A DNA stretch of 64,000 nucleotides, from IMG/VR virus record IMGVR_UViG_647533110_000001; one strand, 5' to 3'. The DNA comes from a virus. Its lineage: Duplodnaviria > Heunggongvirae > Uroviricota > Caudoviricetes. A program made the translations under genes and the position numbers. The notes under the pieces were generated by a model that had not been told where the DNA came from, did not search any database, and worked only from the letters and a program-made list of their open reading frames with translations. This document shows positions 3,700-52,868 of the stretch, piece after piece (within the stretch, counting starts at the first letter, position 1; every line of letters starts with the position of its first letter).

Positions 3700-3744
3700 A
3701 GTCTTTTGCCACCTTCCAGAATCCTTTTCCTTAGCCGGACTTGA

Positions 3745-7460: not shown

Positions 7461-7811
7461 ATGATTTATTTAAAGCGTAAATCTATGAAGAAGTATGTTG
7501 TGGTATATAAGCGGAAAAAGTATATCAAAGTAGCTACTGCAATTGGTAGTAAATTCTATAGAATCTTGGTAGTTATATGCCTGTTGTTTTCCTGTATTGC
7601 GATAAATGCCAAAACTATAAGGGTATTTACAGGAAACATACAGCGCGTGGAGAAGACTGTGAGAATAGATGGAAACACTTACTTCCTAACATTGAAAGAT
7701 GGTACCATGTACCAACTAGAGGATGAGAAGCAATATAGTATTGTATTGGAGAGTTGGAAATATTTCAAGTTTATAATGATTGATGTGAAAGATAATGGCA
7801 AAAAAGAATGA
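7461..7811 (+). CDS. hypothetical protein
   Basis: 116-aa ORF with hydrophobic segment. Confidence 0.35.
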   Translation: MIYLKRKSMKKYVVVYKRKKYIKVATAIGSKFYRILVVICLLFSCIAINAKTIRVFTGNIQRVEKTVRIDGNTYFLTLKDGTMYQLEDEKQYSIVLESWKYFKFIMIDVKDNGKKE

Positions 7812-8791: not shown

Positions 8792-9469
8792 ATGATACCA
8801 GAAATTATTGAACAAATGCGCAAAGAGTTATACGATACTAAATTGTGCATCTCTGATTTCGAGAAGTATGATTTGAAAACTCTTGAAAAGACCAATGAGC
8901 CATTTTTTTGGTTAGTGCGCACACACGGAACACATTTGTGTTTTATTGGCCCCAGTGTAGAAAGTCTTTTTTCGTCAGAAAGTAACCGGTTTGCAATTAT
9001 GAAAGATTCTCATGCTATTATTGCAAGTATTGTTTATTGGGACGATTTGGACTATAATAAGTATTTTTATTGGGATGGAGCACAGCTTCAGAAAGTATCC
9101 AAGGATAAGGTTATTTCAATATTCAATAATATTTGGGGAAGCCGGATACATCAACTTTCCATTCAATACCCTGAAGAGTATGCAGCCATAAACAAACCAT
9201 TGGAATTAAAAATGTCCCCAGAAATATCAGAGCGTGTAAAAGAGGTCAAGAATATTGCTTCGGAATTGCAAGATTCAAGTTTTGAAGATTGCTTGAAAAG
9301 TCTACAAAAATGGGTGAGATTTGCCGTTAACCAACATATTGAAATATATGGTGATTTTGCGAAAAATAGCTTTGGATTCTCTGAGGTGGTAAATGGCAAA
9401 CGCAAAATTTGCGGCGGGATAATTATGTCCCCAAATGCGACTGAAAGACGTTGGAGTATTCATACATAA
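8792..9469 (+). CDS. hypothetical protein
   Basis: 225-aa ORF. Confidence 0.5.
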   Translation: MIPEIIEQMRKELYDTKLCISDFEKYDLKTLEKTNEPFFWLVRTHGTHLCFIGPSVESLFSSESNRFAIMKDSHAIIASIVYWDDLDYNKYFYWDGAQLQKVSKDKVISIFNNIWGSRIHQLSIQYPEEYAAINKPLELKMSPEISERVKEVKNIASELQDSSFEDCLKSLQKWVRFAVNQHIEIYGDFAKNSFGFSEVVNGKRKICGGIIMSPNATERRWSIHT

Positions 9470-9481
9470 AACTGTTGTAAT

Positions 9482-9799
9482 ATGAAGTATTCAGTAAATC
9501 CTAATCTCAATGCTGTTATGAATAGTATTGAGAAACTATTGTTATCCAAAGGAAAGGATAAGCAAGAGAGTATTCAAATTATTAAGAGGTATATAAAATC
9601 ATTTCCTAAAGAACCGGATTATAACTTGGCACAACATGGAGGTATGCTTGTTTCCCCTTATGATGTGAGAGAATTGAATATTAAATGCGGTTATAGTGCT
9701 GTTGTTCAGAACAGAATCTCTGATGGGAGAGTCTGGAATGAATACTTGCTGCGGGTAGGAAGAGTTGCTAAGGAACTTTTAAAAGCAAACGAACTATGA
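9482..9799 (+). CDS. hypothetical protein
   Basis: 105-aa ORF. Confidence 0.45.
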   Translation: MKYSVNPNLNAVMNSIEKLLLSKGKDKQESIQIIKRYIKSFPKEPDYNLAQHGGMLVSPYDVRELNIKCGYSAVVQNRISDGRVWNEYLLRVGRVAKELLKANEL

Positions 9800-10248
9800 A
9801 AGTTATATCAGAAATTTCACTTCGAGATTTCAAATTTTGGAGTGGGGGTGAGGATCGGGCAAAGAACTGTACCGATGAACAACTGGATAAAATTGAATCC
9901 ATAATGGAGAGTGCTGCTCCTGAAAGTGGTTGGACCGATGATGACATAAATAATTTCTTTTGGTTTGACTTTGATACAATTGCAGACTGGCTTGGATACA
10001 AGGATGGAGAACATTTTGATGCAGGAGTTAGTGAAGATGATGTGAAAGAAGCGCAAGATTGGTTTGACGGTATCACAGACACCGAAGATATGATTGATAT
10101 AGCCAGCCTTGACAGAGAAGACTATATTTCTACAGATGAAAATGGGGAAGAAGAATTTGATGAAGATCTTGTTTACTATGACTTTTCAAATTGGTGGAAC
10201 AATATGGATGATATTGAACAAGTGAAAGAGTATCGTAAGCACGAGTAA
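9796..10248 (+). CDS. acidic hypothetical protein
   Basis: 150 aa, very D/E/W-rich. Confidence 0.5.
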   Translation: MKVISEISLRDFKFWSGGEDRAKNCTDEQLDKIESIMESAAPESGWTDDDINNFFWFDFDTIADWLGYKDGEHFDAGVSEDDVKEAQDWFDGITDTEDMIDIASLDREDYISTDENGEEEFDEDLVYYDFSNWWNNMDDIEQVKEYRKHE

Positions 10249-10342
10249 AGTGTTATGGTAGAAATCCGGGTTCGATTCCCGGAACACTACATATATTTGT
10301 TGTTTCCATGTGTGTTGTTCGACATGTTTTTGTTTGAAGGGT

Positions 10343-10381
10343 GGCGCGATCAGAATGTTATTGTTCTGGTTGCGCCTTTTC
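10343..10381 (+). terminator. hairpin GGCGCGATCAG...CTGGTTGCGCC followed by a T-run
   Basis: GC-rich stem plus TTTTCC downstream of gene block. Confidence 0.3.
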
Positions 10382-10469
10382 CTTTAAAGTTAAAGCGAGT
10401 TAATATTCAAAAAGTGGACAACTATGGACACCATCAAAAAACTATTCGATAATAAAAACAAAAAGAAAT

Positions 10470-10847
10470 ATGCAAAAGGAATTGTTAGAAATAGAATTTC
10501 GTTATCATGACAGACCGATAGGTAGCTGCCCAGCTACTTCTTGTAGTAAGACAATTGCCATAGGTATATTTGATACTTTGGAAGAAGCAGTCAAAGCTGG
10601 TAATGAAACATTGAAGGTGTTGTCAGAACATTTCCAAGTAAGATCAGATGACCGATTTAAAGTTCGTGGTTTGTTTGGCACTCCAGATAGACTTGTAACA
10701 AATTGTTGTTATACAACTAAAGGGATTGCATATTTTGCAAAAATTACTCCTCTAAAATTTGATGATCTCTCTGAAACTATAGCAGAGACATTTAAAGCAT
10801 ACGATAGATACAGACAATATAGACGTGAACAAAAAAACGATGAATAA
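10470..10847 (+). CDS. hypothetical protein
   Basis: 125-aa ORF. Confidence 0.45.
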   Translation: MQKELLEIEFRYHDRPIGSCPATSCSKTIAIGIFDTLEEAVKAGNETLKVLSEHFQVRSDDRFKVRGLFGTPDRLVTNCCYTTKGIAYFAKITPLKFDDLSETIAETFKAYDRYRQYRREQKNDE

Positions 10848-11082
10848 TATGGATGTAATAGTCTTAAATCACAAAAACAAAGTATCCTTGCAGGTACAGC
10901 ATGTAGATATTGGTAGTTCTATTGATTTGCATTTTCCAAACGAAAATCAATCATTTGATGCTTTTCAGAAACTTCGTGAAATAGGTGTGAGATGTTTTCA
11001 TGCTGGTAAAAATGCTCCTTGTGGGGCTTCTGTAATGATGTATTCTTATGGTAATGATAATCTTCAACTTCAAATAAAGTAG
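10825..11082 (+). CDS. hypothetical protein
   Basis: 85-aa ORF. Confidence 0.4.
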   Translation: MNKKTMNNMDVIVLNHKNKVSLQVQHVDIGSSIDLHFPNENQSFDAFQKLREIGVRCFHAGKNAPCGASVMMYSYGNDNLQLQIK

Positions 11083-11086
11083 TAAA

Positions 11087-11551
11087 ATGGAAGAAAAGAA
11101 GTATATAAATATTGATAATATGGCGACACGCCTTTGTCAAATTCTCAAAGATGCACGTGAAAGCATGGTTGATGATAAAAATAAGGATTTTATCATGGAG
11201 AACTTTTCGGATGAATATCTGGAAGATTACAGTAATGTAATGGCTTGGCAATTTAATTCTGATATGAAGAAATACTTGCATAATCCGGACCATAGGATCT
11301 GTGGTAATTTTAATAACATTGATTATGACTACCCTTATCATATTTATGGAGAGGTTACATACGACACACCTCTTGTAAATGCTATGATTGCTAGGTTAGA
11401 TGCCGGTGAAGACAGCGAACAAGCTAACGAGGACCGGGACTTTCTTGTTGACTGGTTCTTTGAAACTTTTGGAACATGGGGAATATCCTATAATTTCCAG
11501 TCAAATATATCAGAGTTCCTTTATATGGAGTTTAAAAACCAACAATCTTAA
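11087..11551 (+). CDS. hypothetical protein
   Basis: 154-aa ORF. Confidence 0.5.
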   Translation: MEEKKYINIDNMATRLCQILKDARESMVDDKNKDFIMENFSDEYLEDYSNVMAWQFNSDMKKYLHNPDHRICGNFNNIDYDYPYHIYGEVTYDTPLVNAMIARLDAGEDSEQANEDRDFLVDWFFETFGTWGISYNFQSNISEFLYMEFKNQQS

Positions 11552-11555
11552 ATCA

Positions 11556-12260
11556 ATGAAAACAATAACATTGCAACTGTACACTTTTGATGAATTGTCG
11601 GAAGAGGTACAAAAAGAAATTATTGAGCGTGAACGCTGGAATATAATGGATCAGTGTATGGAGGCTTACGGTTCAGATTATGTAACGTCTCTAAGAACTT
11701 TCGAGAAATTGACAAATACCCAATCATGTAGTTGGAGTGTTAATTATAGCGGATACAATTTTAATTTTAAATATAATAATAATCCCATTTTTGAGTGTCC
11801 AATAGATTGCAGTAATGATATTTATGCAGAGGAATTATGTGGTAAACTATTATTTCGATATATCAATAATAATATTATGCCATACATTACACAAGGTAGA
11901 TATTATTCATCTTCAGGCAAATATATAAATGAAAAATACACTTACAAATACAGACGAAGCCGTATTATCAAATCTGTAGGTGATGATTGTCCACTAACAG
12001 GTATGTGTTATGATTTCTACTTGCTTGAACCTATCATCAAATATTATAAAACTTGGTGCAGTTATCCGGACAACTTTTCGCTCACAGACTTAATAGAACA
12101 ATGCTACGACAGTTTTTTCAAATGCTGGCATGAAGAATATGAGTATTGGGCCAATGATGAAAATGCAATCCGGGAGGAATTACATAACAACCAGTATGAG
12201 GACAGGTTGTATTATATGGATGGAAGAGTCTATAGTGGACCGTTAGATGATGTTGCATAA
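11556..12260 (+). CDS. hypothetical protein
   Basis: start chosen at MKTITLQ directly after the upstream stop (track ORF 11400.. overlaps the previous gene). Confidence 0.5.
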   Translation: MKTITLQLYTFDELSEEVQKEIIERERWNIMDQCMEAYGSDYVTSLRTFEKLTNTQSCSWSVNYSGYNFNFKYNNNPIFECPIDCSNDIYAEELCGKLLFRYINNNIMPYITQGRYYSSSGKYINEKYTYKYRRSRIIKSVGDDCPLTGMCYDFYLLEPIIKYYKTWCSYPDNFSLTDLIEQCYDSFFKCWHEEYEYWANDENAIREELHNNQYEDRLYYMDGRVYSGPLDDVA

Positions 12261-12277
12261 TTAAAATTCAAAAAACA

Positions 12278-12487
12278 ATGATACTCAATATAGTAAAAAA
12301 TGGTACAGATTCTTCAAGTATTTTAGAATGCGTGAGAAAAACTTTCAATAACTCAAAGGTCAGTATTAAAACAGACTATGAAATATCTGTTGATATTGAA
12401 GTAGTTGGCGAGGGTGGACTGCACAGTTTGGAAGGACTAAAAGAACTGGAAGATTATTTTAGAGACTATGACATCAGGGTTTGGTAA
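12278..12487 (+). CDS. hypothetical protein
   Basis: 69-aa ORF. Confidence 0.4.
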   Translation: MILNIVKNGTDSSSILECVRKTFNNSKVSIKTDYEISVDIEVVGEGGLHSLEGLKELEDYFRDYDIRVW

Positions 12488-12783
12488 TTTTAAGTGGTCA
12501 AGAAATGAACGGAGAACAGATAATACCGCCAATTACTGATCCATTAGGGAAACATTGGCAACAACCTCACAGAAGATTTATTGAACTGGACAATACCCAT
12601 GCACTTATGAGCGAACAAACGTTCAAGGGATTAAAAGAATATTCTACCTCAATACCCACAGGAAGATACGAAGGTAAAATGTGGAAAGGATTTACAAAAG
12701 GAGAATGGTATCTTGTATGGTTCGCTCCTGACATAAATCACAACTTACTTCGTATAGAAAGAAGGATAATATTAATAGTGTAA
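12481..12783 (+). CDS. hypothetical protein
   Basis: 100-aa ORF. Confidence 0.4.
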   Translation: MVILSGQEMNGEQIIPPITDPLGKHWQQPHRRFIELDNTHALMSEQTFKGLKEYSTSIPTGRYEGKMWKGFTKGEWYLVWFAPDINHNLLRIERRIILIV

Positions 12784-12808
12784 AATAAAATAAGAAAGGA
12801 GTAAAATA

Positions 12809-13507
12809 ATGAGTCATTTTGTAGTAATGGTCATTGGTGATGACGCAGAAAAACAATTAGAAAAATACGACGAGAGTTTGGAACTTCCTCCGTATATAAA
12901 ACACACAAAGGATGAGCTAGTAGCTTTGAAAAGAAAAGAGATTGAAGATTATCGAAACACTGTATATGCAAAGTATCTGGAAAACAAAGAACTTTATAAA
13001 CAGGGTTGTGAAAATGAAAGACATATAGAATATCTGGAAAACGAGTTTCCTCAAAAGTTACATTGGAGTGATGAACAAGTATATCAAGATGCTATAAAAT
13101 ACAGTGAAATAGACGAAAAAGGGAACGTTATTTCAACATATAATCCGGATGCTAAATGGGATTGGTATGTAAGAGGTGGCAGATGGGCTGGATACCTCTG
13201 GCTGAAAGAGGGAACTGAACCATTGGTACCTGTCAATTTCTCATGGGGATGGAGCGAAGAAGAAAAGCAGAAAGTTATTGATGAAAACAGAGCAGATGTA
13301 GCCGTAAAAAAAGACATTGCTAATTTGGATAATATTATACCATTTGCTATTGTTAAAGATGGTCATTGGTATGAAAAAGGACAAATGGGCTGGTGGGCTG
13401 TTGTGCTGAATGAGAAAGATGACCATATCTGGGAAGAAGAAGTGAAAAAACTATTAGAAGGACTTTCAGAGGATACTATCATTTCGATTTATGATTGTCA
13501 TATTTAA
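12809..13507 (+). CDS. hypothetical protein
   Basis: 232 aa, W-rich; RBS-like AGGAG upstream. Confidence 0.55.
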   Translation: MSHFVVMVIGDDAEKQLEKYDESLELPPYIKHTKDELVALKRKEIEDYRNTVYAKYLENKELYKQGCENERHIEYLENEFPQKLHWSDEQVYQDAIKYSEIDEKGNVISTYNPDAKWDWYVRGGRWAGYLWLKEGTEPLVPVNFSWGWSEEEKQKVIDENRADVAVKKDIANLDNIIPFAIVKDGHWYEKGQMGWWAVVLNEKDDHIWEEEVKKLLEGLSEDTIISIYDCHI

Positions 13508-13524
13508 TATATAACAGATTAGAA

Positions 13525-13740
13525 ATGAGTAAAGAGGAATTGATAAATCAAATAATTGCAATAATTGGATCTGATGATAATTTTGATAATCAAATTTCCG
13601 ATTATGAACATGTTTCAATGTCGCGTCCAGAAGATTTGATTCAAGATAGGACATCGTTTGAACAGATGGTTTTGTACGCTAATGAAATGATGTATAAAAT
13701 CGAAAATGTGAGAAATTTGGTATTAAATGAAATAGATTAA
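13525..13740 (+). CDS. hypothetical protein
   Basis: start at MSKEELINQ, in frame within track ORF 13495..13740. Confidence 0.4.
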   Translation: MSKEELINQIIAIIGSDDNFDNQISDYEHVSMSRPEDLIQDRTSFEQMVLYANEMMYKIENVRNLVLNEID

Positions 13741-13931
13741 TATTCAAAGTGGAAAGATATGATATTATTTGAAAACCCACCTACTGTCTATTTTGAGAAA
13801 GTAGAAGATTATGAAGAAAAATCGACTCCGTGGAGACGGGTTCCTCCTACATATAAAGGCTCCTCAACAAAAAATGGACGTAACAAGAAGCAAATAAGAA
13901 AAGACCGGAAACGAAATAAGAAAAGATAATT

Positions 13932-14279
13932 ATGTCACAAAAATCAATGAAACTCCCAAAACTGTATAGGATCATCGTTGATGTCCAATTTGGAGACATG
14001 CTGGACGAATGCAATAAACTGTATGATGGCGAAGGGTATGGAACTGTCTTTACCGATGCGAATGGAGATGCTGTTATTGACTATCTTAAACAATGGGATA
14101 GTGATGAATGGACTGACGATGATATTCGCAGCGAAGAACCAAGGTGGGTGAATAATGGCACTGATTCCGTACATCAAAAGGATGGATACACCCTTATTTA
14201 CAACTCAACTATTGGTGGTGTATATATGCTGTATCGTGAAGCAAATGATGCTGAAATAGAATGGTATAATAACAATTGA
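13932..14279 (+). CDS. hypothetical protein
   Basis: 115-aa ORF. Confidence 0.5.
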   Translation: MSQKSMKLPKLYRIIVDVQFGDMLDECNKLYDGEGYGTVFTDANGDAVIDYLKQWDSDEWTDDDIRSEEPRWVNNGTDSVHQKDGYTLIYNSTIGGVYMLYREANDAEIEWYNNN

Positions 14280-14542
14280 TATGTATGAAAAATGAAACAA
14301 AAATAACTTTCGTAAAATCTCCAGAAGAAGGAGAAATATGTGCTGTATTTGTGAATGAATTTTGGGATAGGTTCAAAACTAAATTGACAAGCTATATGCA
14401 CATCGGACAACACGCCGGTTGCTCTCCTGACATTCTGAAAAATTGGCCTTTAGCTACTGAACAAGAATATCGGTCATTGTTAGAAGAACTTAACACAATA
14501 GGATATGAAAACATCAAAATCATTCAATCAAGAATACATTGA
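14276..14542 (+). CDS. hypothetical protein
   Basis: 88-aa ORF. Confidence 0.4.
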   Translation: MICMKNETKITFVKSPEEGEICAVFVNEFWDRFKTKLTSYMHIGQHAGCSPDILKNWPLATEQEYRSLLEELNTIGYENIKIIQSRIH

Positions 14543-15116
14543 GAAAGCGAAAACGCTAATCCATGAGATCCTCGAAGATAAAAAAGAGTACGATGACTGG
14601 ACTCAAATCTGTTTTTCCATGCAAAATGCAGTACAAGCTGCGGCTAATATATGGGGAATATCATCAGATGAACAGATTAATAAAATGAGATCCTTTATTA
14701 CAGAAATGGTTTTTACAGAACTTTCAAATCTCAAACAGTTTGACATAGTGTTTAAAAAGAAGGGGGCACAAGTAGAAAGGTCATTAGACACATTGTATTG
14801 CTCAAAATGTGGAAGCAGTGATGTTGAAAAGAGGGTATGGGTAAATCCGAATACACGTGAAATCAGATGCAATGATTCAATTGAGGTGACAGATTGCTGG
14901 TGTGGCATTTGTGAAGAGCATGTAGAATTATGCACCCTTTCAGAATTATGGGAAATGTTTGGAGACATTCCGGTCAATAACGATGATGAGATTGAAGAAG
15001 ACTTTCTCAACTTCCCGGCCGGAACCTTAAAGATTGATGTCTGGCATTGGTTTGATGAACGATGTCCTAACAATTTACACGATGATTTAATGTATTTTAA
15101 AAACGATGCCGTATAA
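14505..15116 (+). CDS. Cys-rich (zinc-binding?) protein
   Basis: CSKCG...C..CWCGICEEHVELC cysteine cluster. Confidence 0.45.
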   Translation: MKTSKSFNQEYIEKAKTLIHEILEDKKEYDDWTQICFSMQNAVQAAANIWGISSDEQINKMRSFITEMVFTELSNLKQFDIVFKKKGAQVERSLDTLYCSKCGSSDVEKRVWVNPNTREIRCNDSIEVTDCWCGICEEHVELCTLSELWEMFGDIPVNNDDEIEEDFLNFPAGTLKIDVWHWFDERCPNNLHDDLMYFKNDAV

Positions 15117-15429
15117 ATCAGAAAAGACTCGTATCGCTGGAACCCAATATGATAGACGAATAAAGCTCACTCCAGACCAAAAAGAATATATAAAATGGTT
15201 GAGAGAAAAGCAATTAATCAGTTACTCTAAACTTGCTAAAATATTTGGAGTGAGCAAGCGTCTTATTCAATTTATTTGTTGCCCAGACAAATATTTGAAA
15301 AATAAAGAGAGTTTAAAACAACGTAAAGCAGAAGGGCGATACAAACCTACAAAAGCAGAATGGGCAGCAACAATTCGTGAGCACAGGAGATATAAGGAAC
15401 AACTCAAAAAGAAAGGAGATATAAAATGA
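15106..15429 (+). CDS. small HTH DNA-binding protein (transposase/resolvase-type HTH), paralog of 21119..21427
   Basis: KLTPDQKEYIKWL...LAKIFGVSKRLIQFI resembles IS-transposase N-terminal HTH; ATGA-coupled to the RT gene. Confidence 0.55.
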   Translation: MPYKSEKTRIAGTQYDRRIKLTPDQKEYIKWLREKQLISYSKLAKIFGVSKRLIQFICCPDKYLKNKESLKQRKAEGRYKPTKAEWAATIREHRRYKEQLKKKGDIK

Positions 15430-16694
15430 AAGATAAGATTCTTACAATGTTCTTCGACATTAATAGATGGACAAAAGCAATTGAGAAAGGCGTTCTGAAG
15501 GATATTCGGAAGAGCGAACTTATCAAACTGACAGAAGAACCAACCAGAATTCGCATGGCAGAAGCTATGTTGAATGGTAAATATCAAATAACACCACCAC
15601 ATATTGCACAAATCCCGAAGGATAACGGAGAGTTTCGTACTGTATATGTCAATGAACCTATTGACCGTATAATCCTAAACATCGCGAACGATTTGTTATT
15701 TGATTTAATGCCAGAGATGATTCATCCTGCTTGTAAATCTTATCAGGTCGGTATTGGTTGCGGTAAAGTGGTTCTGGAAGTAAGTCACACAATTGTTGAC
15801 ATGAAAAGTGATGGTTATGTGGGCTGGAAATCTGATTTAAGTAAATATTTCGACACTGTTCCTATCCGGTTTATTGACGCAGCTTTTGATAAGGTAGAAG
15901 CTAAGTATGGTCACTCTGTGTTAATTGATGTATTAAGAAAATACTATCATTGCGGATTGTATTTCGATGAGAACAACGAACTGCATGAAAAATATCAATC
16001 ACTTAAACAAGGATGCGCAGTAGCAAGCTGGTTAGCCAACGTGTTGCTATATAGCCTGGATGATGAACTGTCCCAATTGAATGGGTTTTACGTAAGGTAT
16101 TCGGATGATATGTTGTTCGTTGGTCCGGACTATGAAAAGGCTATGACCATTTTACAAAAGAGATTGGCCGAAAAATCAATGAATTTGAATCCCAAGAAAG
16201 TAGAGTACCTGACTATGGACAAGTGGTTTAAATTTCTAGGTTTCAGCATTAAGGGAAGTATGATTTCTTTCTCTCCCAATCGTCTTAAAACCTTCCAGAA
16301 AGAAATAGAATCAAGAACCATCAGAAAACGTGGTATTACGTTGAAGAAGGCTGTGGATTCGGTTAACCGATATTTATATAAAGGCAATGGAGAATATAGT
16401 TGGGCGACTCAGACCCTTCCAGTATGTAATGTTCGGGTTGATATTAATGAATTGAATAAATTCGTAATGGATTGCCTTAGAGCCGTTGAAACTGGGAAAC
16501 ATAAAGTTGGTGGCCTTGGCTATGTTAAGGATAAGCCGGATGGTTGTGTTGTTAGAAGTATTGGTCGGAACGTAAAGGCTAATCGAAATAAATCTAAGAG
16601 TAAAGAAATTGAAGGTTATTTGACAATAGGTTGTATGCAGAATGCTATTTTGACCAGAAGAGCAGCGTACAATACTTTAGTGGCAATATTGTAA
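15426..16694 (+). CDS. reverse transcriptase, unassigned class
   Basis: RT motifs 1-7: IPKDNGEFRTVY, GWKSDLSKYFDTVP, LKQGCAVASWLANVLL, YVRYSDDMLFVG (YxDD), LNPKKVEYL, FKFLGFSI; no En/maturase/DGR IGxxxSQ signature. Confidence 0.85.
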   Translation: MKDKILTMFFDINRWTKAIEKGVLKDIRKSELIKLTEEPTRIRMAEAMLNGKYQITPPHIAQIPKDNGEFRTVYVNEPIDRIILNIANDLLFDLMPEMIHPACKSYQVGIGCGKVVLEVSHTIVDMKSDGYVGWKSDLSKYFDTVPIRFIDAAFDKVEAKYGHSVLIDVLRKYYHCGLYFDENNELHEKYQSLKQGCAVASWLANVLLYSLDDELSQLNGFYVRYSDDMLFVGPDYEKAMTILQKRLAEKSMNLNPKKVEYLTMDKWFKFLGFSIKGSMISFSPNRLKTFQKEIESRTIRKRGITLKKAVDSVNRYLYKGNGEYSWATQTLPVCNVRVDINELNKFVMDCLRAVETGKHKVGGLGYVKDKPDGCVVRSIGRNVKANRNKSKSKEIEGYLTIGCMQNAILTRRAAYNTLVAIL

Positions 16695-16740
16695 CTACAA
16701 TCTGAACACACAGTAAATGAATCCGAGGAACAAGTGTTTA

Positions 16741-16837
16741 ATATCCAGATTATATATTAGGTGCCCCGATTCTATCCTTGAAGGATTACATCCTTCAGTA
16801 TCTACTCCGGGCACCATATAATCATCTGGATTATATC
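16741..16837. repeat. long imperfect palindrome (ATATCCAGATTATATAT ... ATATAATCATCTGGATTATAT) with a nested inner hairpin
   Basis: direct reading, 47 bp downstream of the RT stop. Confidence 0.8.
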
Positions 16838-16847
16838 AATGAAGATA

Positions 16848-17500
16848 AAGAGATGTGCCAATTGTTATGAGGATTTTTATCAAGTAGCACAGCAGGCAAG
16901 TTCAAGAAGATATTTTCATATTCTAAATTTGAATGATTGATCATTTCACCGGAGGTTACAAGGCTATATAGCCTTTCACCTCAGGTTCTACGATCAAGTC
17001 ATATTTAGAATTATCATAAAAATAAAGTAATGTGCCGATTATTTGAGAACTTGTAAAATAAATGAAATACATCAAAAGTTATCCAAGGAATACATTTGTT
17101 TACTGTTCCGGTGAGCAGCTTCCTGGACCTATGAGTCGATAACTCATCTGCTCCAGGAATATCCAACCGGAATACATCTATTGGGTAAAGTAATGTATCA
17201 GTATTATGAGGATAACTATTTAGCACAGAAATGTAATTCAAGAAATATCATTTATATAGCTGGTTATATATCAGGAAGGACCGAGTACTAATTGTCCTGG
17301 TCCGTTCCTGATCACACCAGCTCTAAATCGAATAAGTATAGAAATGTGCCAATATTTTGAGAATTACAACTTATTACTTAACACAAAGTTTACAGTCTGG
17401 GATTTAGTAATTTAACATACTGGACAAGATATGATGCCCGCGTGATGACGGTCATCCTATGTATGACCTAGGATTACGCGGGCATTACTTGATACAGTAT
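16848..17500. repeat. four tandem ~160-bp modules, each with a conserved box (ATGTGCCAATnnTTnTGAGrAT) plus a unique 40-65-nt hairpin; candidate RT-associated ncRNA
   Basis: boxes at 16853, 17029, 17194, 17343; hairpins at 16947-16987, 17106-17172, 17267-17314, 17433-17485; only short spurious ORFs. Confidence 0.6.
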
Positions 17501-17718
17501 ATATCATAAACATATAGACATGTGTCACGCTAAATGGGGGCTGTTTTATAAGTAACACAACTTTCATTTATACAAGAACCTTGCGTTTAACAACTATCCG
17601 ACAATTACGCCGGCATCTACGGTTTTATAAACCTTTATTCCGGCGTATTCTGGATGTTAATATCAGGCTTTTAAAGAAATGTGTCAAAGGTTTGAGTATA
17701 AAATCAAAAGTAAACATT

Positions 17719-18177
17719 ATGAAAAATATTTATCAAGAATCAATACAGGCTGTAGAGAACGGAACCAAGTTTAAAGTAGATTTTAAAACACGAAGTTTCA
17801 AACTTAATGGCCAATATATTATACAGAATTCGCAGTATGAGGGAGACTTAGGTGTGGAATTATGCGCTTCTCTTGATGAGTTTCTGTCTAATGTAGAGCA
17901 TTTATATACTCGATATAAACATTCTATTCCATCAACAATGAGTGAATGTAAAAGCCGAAAATACTTTAAGGCTTTGTCTGATAAAGATTTGGAGGATGAA
18001 GACATGTTGTTTGGAGTTGGTCGAGATATAGCACAAGTCGAATTGGAATTATACATTCTCTGTCAAATAATATTGGGTATAGGTTGGGATGCTAATAAAA
18101 TGGGTAAATGGTTTTGGCAAAGCAACAAAGATAGAGATTTAGTAATTCTCAAAAACTGGGTTACAGTAGAGAAATAA
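17719..18177 (+). CDS. hypothetical protein
   Basis: start at MKNIYQES, in frame within track ORF 17581..18177; the upstream part overlaps the repeat region. Confidence 0.4.
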   Translation: MKNIYQESIQAVENGTKFKVDFKTRSFKLNGQYIIQNSQYEGDLGVELCASLDEFLSNVEHLYTRYKHSIPSTMSECKSRKYFKALSDKDLEDEDMLFGVGRDIAQVELELYILCQIILGIGWDANKMGKWFWQSNKDRDLVILKNWVTVEK

Positions 18178-18211
18178 ATAATCAGACTAAAAATTAAATT
18201 ATTAATAAGTT

Positions 18212-19201
18212 ATGAAACAGTTAAAATTTGAATGTCCTGAGTGTGGTACCGAGTTTACGCTTACAGCTAATCAAACCAAAGCTAAGGAGCGTATTGAAGC
18301 TCTAAAGAAAGCTGGTGTTGATGTTAGTGAGCTTTTTGCAATGCAAAGTGCAGATGGTTTGGAGTTTATAGCCTCAAAAAGAGATGGTGTCATTAGTATC
18401 TTGGAAGAAGATGATCCAATCTTCCAGGCCATTATAATTCAAGGCACAATTCCTAATCGGCAATTATTCAGACGTTGGGTAATGGCACAGATGTTCCGCA
18501 TAATTTATATAACTACCAATACCCACGGTGCTTATAAGCCGATTGGAGTTTCAGAGGTGATTCGTAATATGGGATATGAATATCAGTGGAAGATGCTAAA
18601 TAACGAGTTGTACGCCCAGCACAAAATGATGCAGAATGGTGATGTCGATAATTTCAGAGATCGAAATCGCTGGTTCAACAAAAGAGTGGTATTAGATATG
18701 GCAAAAGACTATATCGAGAAACTCAAAAAGAGATTTGAGAAGTTGAAATTGAGAAAATGTAAAGGGGTACCGTATAAACGTATCAACGGCCAAAACATTT
18801 TCGTTGATGATTTTGATAAAAAAGTAATCAAGCCATTGTTGTTTGCAGTACATAAAATACAACATGCCGAAAACACTTATGAACTTTGGCATTCGGTGCA
18901 GGAGTTCAATAAAAGGCGTATCAAAATGCATTGGGGTACTCCTCAAAATGCAGCATGGCTAGATGCTTACAAAGGAGCTGGAGCGTTCTTTACAATGCAG
19001 AACATGATTCGTTTTCATAATTGCGTTATCATTGATGACAATGGAAAAACATTAAGTAAAAACGCGTCCCTTGCTTTTTTGAATAAGAAGGCAAAGTTGT
19101 ACGAGAATAGAGAAGGTTGGCGTTTGATTGGTATGTTGAAGAAAACGCTGGATGACAACAACATTGATGTGGTTGCTAAAATGAAGGAATGGCGTAAATA
19201 A
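18212..19201 (+). CDS. hypothetical protein
   Basis: 329-aa ORF; N-terminal CPECG zinc-ribbon-like pair. Confidence 0.55.
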   Translation: MKQLKFECPECGTEFTLTANQTKAKERIEALKKAGVDVSELFAMQSADGLEFIASKRDGVISILEEDDPIFQAIIIQGTIPNRQLFRRWVMAQMFRIIYITTNTHGAYKPIGVSEVIRNMGYEYQWKMLNNELYAQHKMMQNGDVDNFRDRNRWFNKRVVLDMAKDYIEKLKKRFEKLKLRKCKGVPYKRINGQNIFVDDFDKKVIKPLLFAVHKIQHAENTYELWHSVQEFNKRRIKMHWGTPQNAAWLDAYKGAGAFFTMQNMIRFHNCVIIDDNGKTLSKNASLAFLNKKAKLYENREGWRLIGMLKKTLDDNNIDVVAKMKEWRK

Positions 19202-19252
19202 CTTAATCAAGGCAGTTTTCATAAACCAGTTTAGGTACATTTCCTCTGGTTT

Positions 19253-20425
19253 ATGAAAATAAAATTAGAAAGATTGATTATGAGAAACGATATAATATTC
19301 AAACGTTCCGTCCAATTTCGGGACCAAAATAAAAACAGTTGGACTGTAGATTTTGAGGTTTATAAAGAAGAATCTACTCGTATAAACCGTGAAACATTGC
19401 AAAAATTTAAACAAAGTTTCAGCGTTTCGGTATGTGGGGCTGGTGGTATGAGTGCTGGGCAATGCTACGATCATATAAATCCTCGTACAGAAGGACAAAA
19501 GAAACTTTTGGAATTTTGGAACAAATATCATCTAGGTGGTATGTCTGGCGGTACAGTTCGTCAAGATGAATATTTAAACGGTGAGCAATATGTTAACGAT
19601 TACAATTACTTTGTGGAGTTGTTTAAAACATATAATGAGCATTACCGTGAACAGTTTGATGATATTTCTTTTCAGATTCTTGTTAAGAATTTTAATATTA
19701 GTGACGCGGCTATAATACAGGTGAGAAATGTGCTTTATGAGAAAATGAGGAATAATCCCATTCAATATATCCTTGGATTGTCAAACAAATACTTCCATAC
19801 ATCTTCAGACTACAACGTAAAATGTTTCTTTCTTGCTATAAAAGGCTTATATGTAGATAATGGATATAAATATGGTAATGGCTGGTTATACAGTCCGCTT
19901 CCAGATAATATTGAAGAGATCATAAATAATATTTGTGACCTTGTTGAAGAAGAAGAAACTGCGTTAACAGAAGAACTGGAAGCGGTTTTTGACATGGGTA
20001 AAGAAGGGTTTATTGCCACAAAAGAAATCATCCAGCAAGTAATGGATTTACGTGAATGTGACGAAGATGAAGCCAAACGCTTTGTTGCATTGGGAGTACA
20101 TTTGGGATGTACATTCGGTGATTTGAATGATACATTTGAAGAATGTTCCTATGGTGAACAACTATACTGTGCAAATGGTATTGATTATTATATTGGCACG
20201 GAAGATGAACTGACCAATATAGCTAATGATATAGTATATAAAGATGATGAATATGCGTATTTATGGCGTGAATCTGTGGCGGCTCAAAGAACTACTGATT
20301 CATTGAGTGATTGGTTGGATTCAATCATAAATGAGGATGGTTGGTGCTCTGTGCTAAATCATTGGGATGGACGCTATGAGGAATATAAAATTGCCGGAGA
20401 ATATATTTGTGTTTGTAGGTCATAA
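19253..20425 (+). CDS. hypothetical protein
   Basis: 390-aa ORF, acidic. Confidence 0.55.
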   Translation: MKIKLERLIMRNDIIFKRSVQFRDQNKNSWTVDFEVYKEESTRINRETLQKFKQSFSVSVCGAGGMSAGQCYDHINPRTEGQKKLLEFWNKYHLGGMSGGTVRQDEYLNGEQYVNDYNYFVELFKTYNEHYREQFDDISFQILVKNFNISDAAIIQVRNVLYEKMRNNPIQYILGLSNKYFHTSSDYNVKCFFLAIKGLYVDNGYKYGNGWLYSPLPDNIEEIINNICDLVEEEETALTEELEAVFDMGKEGFIATKEIIQQVMDLRECDEDEAKRFVALGVHLGCTFGDLNDTFEECSYGEQLYCANGIDYYIGTEDELTNIANDIVYKDDEYAYLWRESVAAQRTTDSLSDWLDSIINEDGWCSVLNHWDGRYEEYKIAGEYICVCRS

Positions 20426-20439
20426 AATATTGAATTATC

Positions 20440-20808
20440 ATGGAATATATGGAGCATTCTAATTTTTACGCCATGTGTGATAAAATTAGAAAAATGGAAG
20501 CTAGAGAATTACATTTAGCATTGGAAGCTCATGGTGGCGAATTTGTCTGGATTAATGATGAAAACGATGAGGAAGAATTATATGACCCGCCTATAATCCT
20601 AGTCAACCTGAATGACGGACCTATGGATGTCGTGATCCATAAGGTATGGTTGAATGACGGATGCATTGAATTATCGGCTTTTGATAACGAATGGGGCAAC
20701 CAGGTAGATATTGAACTGGAGGATATTGTTCCTGGACACCTTGCATATCTTATAGAGTACATGCCTATCACCGACAAGGTAAAATCTGTGGCAATAAATA
20801 ATGATTAA
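20440..20808 (+). CDS. hypothetical protein
   Basis: 122-aa ORF. Confidence 0.45.
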   Translation: MEYMEHSNFYAMCDKIRKMEARELHLALEAHGGEFVWINDENDEEELYDPPIILVNLNDGPMDVVIHKVWLNDGCIELSAFDNEWGNQVDIELEDIVPGHLAYLIEYMPITDKVKSVAINND

Positions 20809-20983
20809 TATGGGGCACAAAAAGACGATTGATTATTGGAGACACCCGACCAAAAGGGAAATCAAGTTCGGTGAGGGAGCTATTCATTGGTTAACAGTGG
20901 ATATTGAGAAAGTTCAGAAGTCAGACGGAAGTTTGAAGAAATGGTTTATTCATACAGACGGACTAAGGTACAATCGACCATAG
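20801..20983 (+). CDS. hypothetical small protein
   Basis: 60-aa ORF overlapping the upstream stop. Confidence 0.3.
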   Translation: MINMGHKKTIDYWRHPTKREIKFGEGAIHWLTVDIEKVQKSDGSLKKWFIHTDGLRYNRP

Positions 20984-21118
20984 TTAAAGTGATGTCTGTA
21001 AAGCAAAGGCTGTTCTAACAAAATAGAGCAGCCTTTTGTGTTAAACAATGGTTAAAGTGGACAACTATTCACACCATATAAAACAATAAAATCTATTCAC
21101 ATTAAAACAGTAATAAAT

Positions 21119-21427
21119 ATGCCATTGAAAATTGAGAATATCAAGTTGGCAGGAACCAAGTTTGATGGTCGCGCTAAGTTGTCCCCAGAACAACGTCAGG
21201 CTATTCAAATTTTGGCCCGTGAAGGATATAGCCAAAGAAGGTTGGCTGCTATGTTCAATGTTAGCAAGCGGCTTATACAATCTATACTATCTCCTCCTGT
21301 TCGCAAGCACTCTAAACAATATCCAACAGAATATTGGACAGAGTTAAAACGGAAGTATCGAAAAAAGAAAATTGATTTATACAAAAATGGAAAGATCAAA
21401 TTTAATAACAAGCTGAAAAATAAATGA
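21119..21427 (+). CDS. small HTH DNA-binding protein, paralog of 15106..15429
   Basis: KLSPEQRQAIQILAREGYSQRRLAAMFNVSKRLIQSI aligns with 15106 product (~40% id). Confidence 0.5.
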   Translation: MPLKIENIKLAGTKFDGRAKLSPEQRQAIQILAREGYSQRRLAAMFNVSKRLIQSILSPPVRKHSKQYPTEYWTELKRKYRKKKIDLYKNGKIKFNNKLKNK

Positions 21428-21690
21428 AACGCAAGCGTATCAAGTATGTAGCTAACATTGATTTCGACTATCGTTCAATTACTGATGCAAAGCAACATAT
21501 AAAAATATTCTTGAAATCGCTTCTTTCGCAAATAGGGTTACAATCAGGAATAGACTATATCGTAACAGCTAACCATTTGCGAATTAGACATGTGAAAAAT
21601 ATTACAGGAAAAATAACTACCACACTTAAAGAGATATTCCCAGTATTCAATTTTTATTGGAAGACTCCAAGACTATTGGTGTGGTTCTAA
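21424..21690 (+). CDS. hypothetical protein
   Basis: 88-aa ORF, ATGA-coupled. Confidence 0.4.
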   Translation: MKRKRIKYVANIDFDYRSITDAKQHIKIFLKSLLSQIGLQSGIDYIVTANHLRIRHVKNITGKITTTLKEIFPVFNFYWKTPRLLVWF

Positions 21691-21717
21691 AATCAATATT
21701 AATAATAATTTACAAGT

Positions 21718-22416
21718 ATGGAAACGTATTCTATTTCGGTTTTAGGAGCCGACAAGAAACAGTATGAAATCGCAGATTTCAGAGCAAGAGGTATGAATTA
21801 TGCTAATGCTATTGGTATTATCGTAGAAACAGAATTTATGAGTCGTGTTTTGGCGTTTGACACTTGGCAAGAACAATGGGGAAATACTGATAGGATCTTA
21901 ACGGAAGAGCAGAATGAATCCGTTGCTATGCAAACTTTCTCCGGACTTGATCTAACCAAACGTATTGTAGAAGCACAAACTGATATTGATGGAATGACTG
22001 CCGCCAAACGCTGCTGGAACTATCAAAAAGGTGGCCTCCAGTGGTATTTGCCTTGTTTGATGGAGCTAGGAGTGCTTTGCGCATATCATGATGAGATAAA
22101 CAAAGCAATGAAAGAAATTGGATGTCCCGATGAATGTTTACTTCCTACAGAAGATTCTGATGCAACCTGGGTTTGGAGTAGCAGTGAGCGCAGTCAGGGC
22201 AACAGCTGGGGCGTGTACTTTAGTAATGGCAACTTCTACGGCAACTTCAAGTGCAGCAGTAGCATGGTGAGAGCGGTTGCAGCATTTCAGCCTTCGCCGA
22301 GCCTGTTGACAGGCGAGGCAAAAAGTAACGATTGTCTGCATAGTGACGAAGCTCTTATAAACATGTTACGTGAACGTGGTTATAAAGGCGAATTGACTAA
22401 GACCTTGACTATTTAA
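21718..22416 (+). CDS. hypothetical protein
   Basis: 232-aa ORF. Confidence 0.5.
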   Translation: METYSISVLGADKKQYEIADFRARGMNYANAIGIIVETEFMSRVLAFDTWQEQWGNTDRILTEEQNESVAMQTFSGLDLTKRIVEAQTDIDGMTAAKRCWNYQKGGLQWYLPCLMELGVLCAYHDEINKAMKEIGCPDECLLPTEDSDATWVWSSSERSQGNSWGVYFSNGNFYGNFKCSSSMVRAVAAFQPSPSLLTGEAKSNDCLHSDEALINMLRERGYKGELTKTLTI

Positions 22417-22469
22417 TATTATCGCCACCCATATTTGATATGGTATGGGTGACAGAATATTTTTGACAC

Positions 22470-22721
22470 ATGGAAACATTTAAAAAGATTATAAGACAAT
22501 ATGCACAAAGCGAAGTGTGTATGGGAGAATTGTTAGCTAATATTTCGGCAGATGGCATGTCTATTGAAGATGCTTTTGAATTGTATATAAAAGCTATGAA
22601 CTATGCTGAAAAAGATGAATTTTATCAATTAGCTGACGGAGAAGTGAAACTATTAACAGCTAAGAGTGAAGATGACAAACAACCTTTAAAACAATTGTTA
22701 GATTCGCTAAATATGTCCTAA
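22470..22721 (+). CDS. hypothetical protein
   Basis: 83-aa ORF. Confidence 0.4.
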   Translation: METFKKIIRQYAQSEVCMGELLANISADGMSIEDAFELYIKAMNYAEKDEFYQLADGEVKLLTAKSEDDKQPLKQLLDSLNMS

Positions 22722-22730
22722 TATATAAAA

Positions 22731-23363
22731 TTGAACATGAATAAATACTATTTTATAAATATTGGTGCTGAAGTAATATGGCACCCTGAAAATAGTGACG
22801 AGCAGAAAGTTGTGCAAATATGCACCTCGGTTTCTTATCCTGTTGAAAATGACACATTAGTTTCTCTAATTTTTTCTGATAAAAAAGGGAGTGTAAAAGT
22901 AAAGGCCGACGAATTAACTCCAAAATTGACTGACTTCAATCAAGGGTACTGGTGCGCACTTCAAGATGCAATAAGTAATGGTGCCTCTGATATGGTTATT
23001 CAGGAAATGCTACGCAGTGCCGGATTTACATACTGGGAATGTTACTGGCATATACAAAATTCTGATTTTCAGTCAGAAAAAATATGGTCGATTATTCGTG
23101 GGATGTTTTGCCAAAATCCAGATTATATTGATTGGAATGGTGCTGATTATCCAATAAAAACGGTAGTAATCTTTGAAAATACTCCTGATGAAGAAAAGGT
23201 GACTGTATCTGTAGAACGGTTAGCGCGACAATTATTAGATGATATGGGTAATTGGAGTACACGAGAAGCAGAATTTGTAGATGAACAGATTTATTTCTAT
23301 CTGGATGAAGATACCTTTAATATGCCTGATGAAGATATTGTAGAATACTTGGAAAAACAATGA
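22731..23363 (+). CDS. hypothetical protein
   Basis: 210-aa ORF, ATGA-coupled to the methyltransferase gene. Confidence 0.5.
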   Translation: MNMNKYYFINIGAEVIWHPENSDEQKVVQICTSVSYPVENDTLVSLIFSDKKGSVKVKADELTPKLTDFNQGYWCALQDAISNGASDMVIQEMLRSAGFTYWECYWHIQNSDFQSEKIWSIIRGMFCQNPDYIDWNGADYPIKTVVIFENTPDEEKVTVSVERLARQLLDDMGNWSTREAEFVDEQIYFYLDEDTFNMPDEDIVEYLEKQ

Positions 23364-24997
23364 AATTACTTTATATAGATTTATTTTGTGGTGCCGGTGG
23401 AACCAGCACAGGGGTAGAAAAAGCCCGTTTAGAGAATGAACAATGTGCTAAGGTAATAGCATGTGTAAATCATGATAAAAATGCGATTGCAAGTCATGCT
23501 GCTAATCATCCGGACGCTCTTCATTTTACAGAAGATATTCGTACACTAAATTTATCTCCTTTAGTTTCCCATCTACAAAAATGCAGAGCTGAATACCCTG
23601 AAGCATTGATAGTTTTATGGGCTTCGTTGGAATGTACTAATTTCTCGAAAGCTAAAGGTGGTCAACCACGAGATGCAGATAGTAGAACACTTGCAGAGCA
23701 CTTGTTTCGGTATATTGAGGCTATTAACCCAGACTATATTCAAATTGAGAATGTAGAAGAGTTTATGTCATGGGGAGATTTGGATGAGTACGGTAAACCC
23801 ATTAGTCGTGATAAAGGTAAATCTTATTTGAGATGGCTGGATAACGTAAGGTCTTATGGCTACAAATTTGAACATAAAATATTAAATTCAGCAGACTATG
23901 GGGCTTACACTTCTAGGAAGAGATTTTTCGGAATATTTGCGAAAGGGAGTTTACCTATTGTTTTTCCAGAGCAAACCCATTCTAAAAAGCCAGACCAAAA
24001 ATTAAAGAACTGGAAGGCAGTACGAGAAGTGTTAGACTTTGATGATGAAGGAAAAAGTATTTTTGGTCGGAAAACACCTTTAGTAGATTCTTCTTTATTA
24101 AGAATTTATGCAGGACTTATTAAGTTTGTAGCAGGTGGGAAAGATGCCTTCATGGTTAAGTATAACTCAATGAGTAAAGCTGGAAAGTACAATGCTCCGG
24201 GAGTTGAGGATCCATGTCCAGTAATATCTACTCAAAATCGACTTGGTGTTGCTTGCATAAACCGTTTAAATATTCTAACCGGAAAAGCATTTATTTCTGT
24301 TCATTATGGAAATGGATTTTGTAAATCTGTAGATGAACCAGCACCAACCGTAACAACAAAAGACCGATTTTCATTAATTTCTTCTGTGTTTATTGACCAA
24401 CAATACGGAAACAGTAAGCCTTCTTCACTGGATAAACCACTAGGCTGTATTACTGTTAATCCCAAATATAGCCTTGTAAGCTGTAAACCTTGGATTTTAG
24501 ATACAAATTTTAAGAATGTTGGCACAAGTATAAATCAACCGGCACCAGTAATTACCGCAAACCGTAAATGGCATTACTTGATGAATCCTCAATTTAATTC
24601 TGCTGGCGGATCTGTAGATAAACCTTGTTTTACGTTAATCGCTAGAATGGATAAGATGCCGCCATATTTGATTGAAGCATCTGGAGGGGGAGAGCTACCT
24701 GGCTTTATTAAGATGTTTCCAGAAGGATTGGTATATGAGATATATGACACAGATAGTGATGTAATGAAGAAAATAAAGGAATTCATGGCCATGTATGGAA
24801 TTTCCGACATAAAAATGAGAATGCTAACGATTCCAGAGTTGAAACGTATTATGGGATTCCCAGAAGATTATATGCTAATAGGAACAAAAGCAGAACAGAA
24901 AAAGTATATAGGAAACGCCGTAGAAGTTAATATGGCACGAGTTCTTTGTGAGGCATTATGTAAAATATTAGTAACAATGCAACGTAAGGTTGCGTAA
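23360..24997 (+). CDS. DNA (cytosine-5) methyltransferase, orphan
   Basis: motif I LFCGAGG, motif VI ENV, motif VIII SRKRFFGIF, motif X GNAV; motif IV reads SLECTNFS instead of PCQxFS. Confidence 0.75.
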   Translation: MKLLYIDLFCGAGGTSTGVEKARLENEQCAKVIACVNHDKNAIASHAANHPDALHFTEDIRTLNLSPLVSHLQKCRAEYPEALIVLWASLECTNFSKAKGGQPRDADSRTLAEHLFRYIEAINPDYIQIENVEEFMSWGDLDEYGKPISRDKGKSYLRWLDNVRSYGYKFEHKILNSADYGAYTSRKRFFGIFAKGSLPIVFPEQTHSKKPDQKLKNWKAVREVLDFDDEGKSIFGRKTPLVDSSLLRIYAGLIKFVAGGKDAFMVKYNSMSKAGKYNAPGVEDPCPVISTQNRLGVACINRLNILTGKAFISVHYGNGFCKSVDEPAPTVTTKDRFSLISSVFIDQQYGNSKPSSLDKPLGCITVNPKYSLVSCKPWILDTNFKNVGTSINQPAPVITANRKWHYLMNPQFNSAGGSVDKPCFTLIARMDKMPPYLIEASGGGELPGFIKMFPEGLVYEIYDTDSDVMKKIKEFMAMYGISDIKMRMLTIPELKRIMGFPEDYMLIGTKAEQKKYIGNAVEVNMARVLCEALCKILVTMQRKVA

Positions 24998-25012
24998 TTT
25001 AACAACAATAAT

Positions 25013-25231: not shown

Positions 25232-25233
25232 CT

Positions 25234-25467: not shown

Positions 25468-25638
25468 TCTGGATGCTTTTGAAATAGTGGTTTCGGCTAA
25501 TAATAAAGCCGAAGCCAAAAGAAAAGCTATCGAGAGACTTCAAAGAAAGAAGATCACTTCCCTGATTCGTAAATCTTGGCCTAACAACAAGAAAGAGGTG
25601 TATGTTGATGAGAAGTAATTTGAAAATCAAAAGGAGAT

Positions 25639-52863: not shown

Positions 52864-52868
52864 TTGAT

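Follow-up and report, generated by a model that had tools for sequence, protein, structure and literature searches.

A canonical UG27 reverse transcriptase locus in a gut phage, followed by an array of structured units with unit-specific loop-box helices

Which class of reverse transcriptase (RT) is encoded between positions 15106 and 19201 of the tailed-phage record IMGVR_UViG_647533110_000001, and what is the role of the long non-coding stretch that follows its gene? These questions arise from a 64,000-nt stretch of DNA from this record (hereafter the window, meaning the whole stretch), in which the region comprises four co-oriented plus-strand open reading frames (ORFs) and a non-coding gap of 1,024 nt. 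An earlier, sequence-only reading of the window had left the RT unassigned to any class, had described four tandem modules in the gap, each with a constant leader box followed by a different hairpin, and had proposed a new retroelement or defence system. The present analysis assigns the RT by profile comparison to the UG27 family (Class 2 UG/Abi) and the locus to the canonical UG27 systems, and it divides the gap into an array of six units, each closed by a short helix between a loop near its start and the box at its end. With a probability of roughly 0.6, this is a canonical UG27 system whose closed units serve as RT substrates, the hairpin most likely being the template for complementary DNA (cDNA). 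The core idea of the earlier reading, an RT whose structured non-coding RNA (ncRNA) is encoded in cis and multiplied, is supported by conserved synteny, by units in 129 distinct arrays and by strong covariation.

Profile comparison with PADLOC revealed that RT_UG27 covers the RT from end to end (positions 1-419/420) at E 2e-229; the runner-up family is UG26 at 2e-32, followed by Drt9/UG28 and UG17. Downstream of the array lie two conserved partner genes that the earlier reading had overlooked, RTas346 and RTas337, which belong to Mestre clusters 346 and 337. Because the UG27 profile matches at full length and both partners are present, the RT cannot be regarded as unassigned. UG27 with clusters 346 and 337 was described in 1,447 dereplicated gut phage genomes, together with a conserved ncRNA "with three long stem-loops" predicted between the RT and cluster 346 (Mestre et al. 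2022, NAR 50:6084; PMC9226505). The element is thus already known rather than new, and the locus shows every testable defining feature of a UG27 system. IMG/VR also includes copies whose RT protein is identical to that of the window. That the RT should nevertheless define a new class of retroelement or defence system is scarcely credible in view of these matches, of the published system with its ncRNA and of the identical copies, even though the spacer has no Rfam family match and neither RTas346 nor RTas337 has a known fold.

Other statements about the RT proved accurate. Its sole Pfam domain is RVT_1 (residues 63-275), in agreement with the absence of group II maturase and endonuclease domains, and the string QGCAVASW is present as described. 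The residues R-Y-x-D-D are invariant across 34 RTs with 27-42% identity to the first sequence of the alignment. Three familiar classes were considered and rejected. Membership of the retron clade is opposed by the best retron profile (RT_Ec107-like), which reaches 8.5e-10 as compared with the UG27 score given above; a group II intron RT is opposed by the presence of RVT_1 only and by the lack of any Rfam intron family match. A diversity-generating retroelement (DGR) is opposed by the RT profile, which is that of UG27 and not of DGRs, and by the absence of a template/variable repeat pair, since no direct repeats of at least 40 nt above 73% identity were found in window positions 9000-26000.

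The spacer between the RT gene and RTas346 (16695-17718) was correctly said to be about 1 kb without a credible ORF; its sole plus-strand ORF is an upstream TTG extension of RTas346. It holds six boxes (starting at 16853, 17030, 17193, 17344, 17520 and 17679) and not four. The box itself is real, although the consensus first given for it, if read literally, recovers no copy but the first when up to 3 mismatches are allowed. A profile made from 185 boxes from all loci finds all six window sites at E <= 0.0025, and nothing beyond these six scores better than E = 4.8 in the 64 kb. Likewise, the four hairpins originally listed exist but are just the cores of longer hairpins of 71-107 nt, and there are six of these, including a sixth at 17576-17671. 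The palindrome reported at the opening of the spacer is genuine as well (16743-16831, z = -6.55) and counts as the first of the six. All six beat their dinucleotide shuffles, with z from -3.6 to -8.0 as RNA and from -3.9 to -7.6 as complementary single-stranded DNA (ssDNA). The resulting units measure ~150-177 nt each (Table 1). Modules 1 and 3, and modules 2 and 4, had rightly been judged more alike; the same B-C duplication is found in other lineages, and unit 4 is a paralogue of unit 2. An Rfam scan of the spacer returned no family at E <= 1, and the whole window gave six tRNAs only. Comparison of the hairpin sequences with the rest of the window yielded chance matches of 13-14 nt only.

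Alignment of the units revealed a common plan, in which a small stem-loop (SL1) with the loop A-RYRYA is followed by two conserved segments, CAAGG and ATTYAAY, by the long hairpin, the linker AYA-TCRA-n5-TAAAG-nn-A and the 5-nt box. The SL1 stem covaries (CCG/CGG, CTG/CAG, CTT/AAG, GGT/ACC) and carries the loops A-GCACA, A-ACACA or A-ACGCA. The 5-nt core of the box is the reverse complement of the SL1 loop that lies upstream of it, across the hairpin, and not of the loop that comes after the box. As the core pairs with the SL1 loop of that unit, the box closes the unit; it is therefore not a constant leader, as had been supposed, but the 3′ closing strand of the preceding unit, and the 22-nt box of the earlier description is such a closing strand joined to TGAG, the conserved beginning of the unit that follows. 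This also accounts for a first unit with no preceding box and a last box with no following hairpin. The opposite arrangement, with the box as a 5′ leader pairing with SL1 of its downstream unit, was rejected, as a match occurs in ~25% of units, which is the permuted level. A second helix around SL1, between the strands after TGAG and before CAAGG, was discarded too, since the permutation test gave 3.10 vs 3.18 and hence no signal.

The loop-box helix is supported by several counts. In the first test, 75 of 104 distinct combinations showed 5/5 Watson-Crick pairs, as against 21 of 82 for the upstream box. In a fixed-length alignment of 111 distinct rows, 98.9% of the cells are paired, and three of the five pairs vary on both sides (AU 48 / GC 48, CG 99 / UA 7 and AU 85 / GC 24); slid registers pair just 18-44% of the cells. 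The covariation score of the structure as a whole is 0.717, a value reached by none of 500 shuffles, which score 0.216. Loop-box pairing played no part in the choice of these rows; the SL1 stem did, so that the figures for SL1 are partly circular. Over the 129 distinct arrays, an exact complement of the downstream box occurs within the first 95 nt in 309 of 370 distinct units; the controls are 72/283 for the upstream box and a mean of 93 (maximum 111) for permuted pairings. The helix uses 19 different complementary 5-mer types and, read as plus strand, tolerates G.U pairs. The 33 loci from bacterial genomes, retrieved once the rule had been set, obey it in 57 of 77 new units (permuted mean 17.5, maximum 27), and the cultured phage BS-TP1 follows it with additional pair types. 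In the window itself, pairing is exact in five units. The odd box TGTAT of unit 3 is met by an equally odd loop, ATACA, which makes a compensatory pair; the loop ACACA of unit 5 is exactly complementary to its box TGTGT; and at the position of unit 6, the clade with 73-78% RT identity has the loop ACGCA with the box TGCGT, a case of covariation between clades. Only unit 1 is imperfect, its loop ACACA forming four pairs and one A.C mismatch with the box TGTGC. The sequence of the helix often differs between units of one array and can serve as a unit-specific address.

These counts bear on the question of whether the array acts at the level of DNA, with boxes as iterons, promoters, attP arm sites or part of an oriT or origin, and hairpins as cruciforms or terminators. 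Regularly spaced repeats do adjoin replication-region genes here, and the hairpins fold as DNA on either strand. However, an iteron or promoter would be expected to be constant, whereas the box covaries with a partner ~130 nt away in 19 complementary types; moreover, the box occurs nowhere else in the 64-kb window, promoter-like and terminator-like sites are not enriched in the window scan, and the array is always found with a UG27 RT in the same orientation. Because of the covariation with a distant partner and the lack of promoter-like enrichment, a DNA-level role is very improbable. A retron msr-msd RNA with terminal a1/a2 inverted repeats and a branching G was likewise rejected as a description of the spacer: no Rfam retron model matches at E <= 1, and the RNA lies downstream of the RT, is multiplied and is closed by a 5-bp loop-box helix.

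Table 1. Coordinates of the locus, of the array units and of other features discussed in the text (window positions unless stated otherwise)
Feature	Coordinates	Strand	Details
UG27 reverse transcriptase (Class 2 UG/Abi, by PADLOC and Pfam)	15426..16694	+	422 aa; catalytic motif YSDD
Array unit 1	16695..16859	+	SL1 CTG-AACACA-CAG 16702-16713; hairpin 16743-16831, z = -6.55; TAAAG 16846; box ATGTGCC 16853-16859
Array unit 2	16860..17036	+	loop GCACA 16887-16891; hairpin 16909-17015, z = -6.29; box ATGTGCC 17030-17036; exact complement
Array unit 3	17037..17199	+	loop ATACA 17067-17071; hairpin 17104-17174, z = -4.49; box ATGTATC 17193-17199
Array unit 4	17200..17350	+	loop GCACA 17223-17227; hairpin 17248-17331, z = -5.89; box ATGTGCC 17344-17350
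Array unit 5	17351..17526	+	loop ACACA 17381-17385; hairpin 17417-17500, z = -7.97; box ATGTGTC 17520-17526
Array unit 6	17527..17685	+	loop ACACA 17555-17559; hairpin 17576-17671, z = -3.59; terminal box ATGTGTC 17679-17685
RTas346 (Mestre cluster 346)	17719..18177	+	152 aa; PADLOC E 1.6e-67
RTas337 (Mestre cluster 337)	18212..19201	+	329 aa; N-terminal CxxC zinc-ribbon-like motif, all-helical body; E 4.9e-142
Small helix-turn-helix (HTH)-like ORF	15106..15429	+	107 aa; ATGA overlap with RT start; weak HTH_3 and PHROG "transcriptional regulator" matches, below cut-offs
ATPase_2/DUF234 protein	45644-47026	-	
Transposase	47161-48837	-	
DarB-like methyltransferase/helicase	53966-57082		1,038 aa
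SMODS nucleotidyltransferase	58535-59476	-	
Integrase-family genes	59660-60718 and 61658-62872	both -	
RTs of the lineage without an adjacent array (L089, L097, L102, L125, L129, L130, L132, L134, L135, L145, L156)	RT ~3489-4772 per locus		coordinates in the respective loci

The locus is conserved well beyond the window. IMG/VR contains 373 relatives of the RT, from which a close set of 81 sequences was assembled (the window and 80 fetched loci, 73-100% RT identity). The order RT, spacer of 811-1,494 nt, RTas346 and RTas337 is present in all 76 of the 81 loci that are long enough to show it, and all 52 distinct spacers of the close set contain 5-8 boxes at a spacing of 150-190 nt. A profile-based scan added 80 loci with 54-75% RT identity, most of which retain the synteny with spacers of ~0.5 to 2.5 kb; in the distant arrays with box hits, the period of ~170 nt recurs. 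These distant relatives were found by the alignment-based scan, and single distant RT queries against IMG/VR returned nothing. Inspection of homologue neighbourhoods, a check that had been proposed at the outset, thus bears out both a conserved box-and-hairpin array and covarying hairpin pairs. The hairpins keep their shape within a unit type, and 43 of 158 consensus pairs show compensatory Watson-Crick types. The tip of the A-type hairpin is conserved across genomes (CTTGAAGG...CCTTCAG).

The arrays are also mosaic. In the clade with 73-78% RT identity, position-specific unit types follow the fixed order H0, A, B, C, D and terminal box, and long arrays hold extra B/C-like units. In comparison with the close relative L022, both the H0 hairpin and the A-type box have been lost from the window lineage; a deletion of ~167 nt (window 16695-16859 vs L022 spacer 1-308) joins the H0 leader to the A-type hairpin. 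The single imperfect loop-box pair of the window is attributable to this deletion, which made unit 1 a hybrid. In close relatives, L004 among them, the box at the position of unit 1 is ATGTGTC, and perfect pairing is restored. Units 2 and 3 (window 16846-17185) are 82-94% identical to their counterparts in L002-L029 where the RT gene is 97-99.8% identical, and unit 2 alone shows 84-86% identity among such phages. The remaining units are mostly 97-100% identical; the exception is the first segment, which comprises the leader and HA (85% in L010, 82% in L022). L025 combines an RT identity of 86% with unit identities of 85-98%, all except unit 2 lying above the RT. These contrasts in identity between units and RT gene argue that units are gained, lost and exchanged as cassettes.

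With regard to hosts, the cultured Bacteroides phage BS-TP1 carries the RT, an unannotated 1,349-nt gap with eight units, and both partner genes; its RT (L081 4381-5643; PQ571274.1 79351-80613) is annotated as "tail protein". Another 33 loci lie in bacterial genomes of Bacteroides, Alistipes, Butyricimonas, Prevotella/Segatella, Muribaculaceae, Barnesiella and a few Firmicutes. Since some of these loci are in complete chromosomes, the phages concerned are temperate, and the locus is carried by a temperate phage of gut Bacteroidales.

How would such a locus work? The array would be transcribed together with its operon, in the order RT, ~1-kb array, RTas346 and RTas337 on the plus strand, and each closed unit would be bound by the RT and used as a substrate. 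The proposal that the units are RT substrates is made because all characterised RTs of Class 2 UG copy a segment of an ncRNA encoded in cis (PMC13174585) and because the closing helix around a long hairpin recalls retron a1/a2. A 2026 preprint that brings UG27 together with hairpin, array, pseudoknot and cDNA (bioRxiv 10.64898/2026.09.22.753630) points the same way. The long hairpin is favoured as the template, since no other part is unit-specific and since the complementary strand of the hairpin folds just as well; its use would most likely give rise to several different structured cDNAs. RTas346 and RTas337 would act as obligatory partners, and the role of the system is probably in phage-host or phage-phage conflict. 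UG27 is not enriched in defence islands (PMC9226505). The plus strand as the functional one is pointed to by gene orientation and by the G.U tolerance of the loop-box helix. A tentative extension, possible but doubtful at present, holds that every one of the 5-8 units serves independently as a retron-like template, so that the RT makes a set of different structured ssDNAs from one transcript; the loop-box address would prevent mispairing between neighbours, and cassette swaps would change what the DNAs bind or mimic, for instance host defence sensors.

Several observations weigh against the reading of the hairpins as cDNA templates. The Class 2 RTs characterised so far work from short confined templates, and their products are tandem repeats rather than copies of long hairpins (PMC13174585). 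The strand signal of the hairpins is ambiguous, with G.U vs A.C at 115:41 on plus-strand-derived structures and 70:46 on minus-strand-derived ones, and single-sequence folds slightly favour the minus strand (160 vs 60). Such a strand balance is what would be expected of a helix that has to form in the RNA as well as in the DNA copied from it, though it does not amount to proof. Loop-box complementarity would persist in cDNA or could mark a primer-template relation, so that a static RNA pseudoknot is not its sole reading. A search with the AlphaFold2 models of RTas337 and RTas346 against solved structures gave no informative match, which leaves the partners without a recognisable fold. In addition, one UG27-like RT lineage (57-59% identical to the window RT) lacks an array and partner genes next to the RT: in the 11 loci listed in Table 1, there is no box hit and no RTas346 or RTas337 match downstream of the RT, and in L089, L125 and L145, coding sequence directly follows the RT, with no unit signature within ~3.5 kb on either side. 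This lineage either has its RNA elsewhere in the genome or works without RNA. Two further loci deviate from the usual order. L143 (RT 3495-4724) has a weak RTas346-like match right behind the RT, with no spacer and no unit signature; in L144 (RT 3507-4754), RTas346 and RTas337 are upstream of the RT, again with no unit signature.

The main rival is a model in which the hairpins are only scaffolds or protein-binding arms, and the RT copies a short segment into tandem-repeat or homopolymeric DNA, as do DRT3a, DRT9 and DRT10. Candidate segments would be the ACACA-like SL1 loop or the TCAA...TAAAG linker. Besides the confined templates and tandem-repeat cDNA of the characterised enzymes (PMC13174585), this model draws on the DRT3a template 5′-ACACAC-3′, which resembles the UG27 SL1 loops A-GCACA and A-ACACA, and on the proximity of UG27 by profile to UG26, Drt9/UG28 and UG17. 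The loop 5-mer, however, varies (19 types) and is already taken up by pairing with the box, and mere scaffolds would leave 5-8 different, cassette-exchanged and type-specific hairpins hard to account for; we therefore regard the model as unlikely. Still less probable is a function of the RNA alone, for instance the sequestration of host proteins by a decoy or sponge or the control of the genes downstream, with the RT binding the array without copying it. Hairpin tips that are type-specific and conserved across genomes would suit protein binding sites, and the last box is located just upstream of the RTas346 start codon, ending 34 nt before it. On the other hand, the catalytic residues of the RT are invariant across the family, and the stems, which are >95% Watson-Crick, show few G.U pairs whichever strand is considered, a count made without a reference set of structured RNAs. 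The preferred reading thus remains that of closed units used as RT substrates.

As for the partner proteins, the AlphaFold2 model of RTas337 has a mean confidence (pLDDT) of 81.5, with a zinc-ribbon-like N-terminus and a helical body, and that of RTas346 has a pLDDT of 73. Several RTas337 homologues (P0036, P0048, P0083 and P0104 among the entries concerned) in Bacteroides/Phocaeicola are named "ubiquitin carboxyl-hydrolase" by NCBI, and one JGI homologue entry is named "PHP family hydrolase"; neither name is supported by Pfam or by the structure search. In some arrays, though not in the window, an ORF of ~75-80 aa lies between the terminal box and RTas346 (L028 ~7000-7370, L033 ~7430-7720, L090 ~6100-6380), and that of L028 begins ATGACAGCAAAAGAAATTGAAATCGGC. 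Upstream, the ATGA overlap of the RT start with a small ORF was correctly noted. This HTH-like ORF adjoins the RT upstream only where RT identity reaches 90% or more; it is absent upstream of the RT in the clade with 73-78% identity and lies ~3 kb downstream in L077/L078. It is therefore a lineage-specific neighbour and not a core part of the system.

The window is phage-like to ~44 kb, with a replication initiator, a methyltransferase and six tRNAs. The tRNA genes form a plus-strand cluster at 38583-41388 (Leu-taa, Lys-ttt, Glu-ttc, Asn-gtt, Cys-aca, Asp-gtc), which is typical of phages, and proteins of the phage region include a C-terminal DnaJ domain (6460-7152) and an ExoX-like C-terminal motif (33292-33945). 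From 44000 to 64000, the G+C content is ~0.40-0.47, as compared with 0.31-0.38 before, and the gene content changes too (Table 1). This part may comprise the prophage end and a neighbouring mobile or defence island.

UG27 ranks with the most abundant RTs of human gut phages, and its RNA partner emerges here not as a single ncRNA but as an array whose units close themselves by unit-specific pairing. This architecture offers precise and cheap experimental handles, namely compensatory loop-box mutants and the deletion or swap of units, and cultured material exists in BS-TP1 on Bacteroides salyersiae BG8, Alistipes putredinis DSM 17216 and Segatella copri HDD04. Should each unit template its own DNA, the system would be of interest for multiplexed in-cell ssDNA production tools and would represent a phage-borne, multi-template retroelement without a characterised counterpart.

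Comparison with known systems places the locus closest to UG27 as described by Mestre et al. (2022), with which it shares the RT family, partner clusters 346 and 337, gene order, a spacer with a predicted structured ncRNA and occurrence in gut phages of Bacteroidetes/Firmicutes. It differs, as far as the text description allows comparison, in having 5-8 units (six in the window), each with a unit-specific loop-box helix, in place of three long stem-loops; the unit grammar and the unit-specific closing helix are the addition to the 2022 description. A preprint on the genome language model Minerva (24 Sep 2026; bioRxiv 10.64898/2026.09.22.753630) names UG27, hairpin, array, cDNA, pseudoknot and Bacteroides; it very likely deals with this RNA, and the unit/pseudoknot architecture and the cDNA product may already stand there. 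With retron msr/msd, the locus has in common an RT with a cis-encoded RNA and a lineage-variable long hairpin inside a closing helix (a1/a2 in retrons, SL1 loop-box here). In contrast to retrons, the RNA lies downstream of the RT, is multiplied 5-8 times and is closed by 5-bp pairing between a loop and a strand instead of terminal inverted repeats. DRT3 (UG3 + UG8), DRT2, DRT9 and DRT10/UG17 resemble UG27 as Class 2 UG RTs with a conserved cis-encoded ncRNA, on which the RTs of these DRTs depend. The likeness is greatest for DRT3, whose template ACACAC recalls the SL1 loop and whose ncRNA sits downstream of its RT genes (PMC13174585), so that the downstream position, which the earlier reading had contrasted with retrons and DRT2/DRT9, has a precedent. 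The Class 2 DRTs serve bacterial defence and comprise one ncRNA with a short template, whereas UG27 is phage-borne and combines a unit array with other partner genes.

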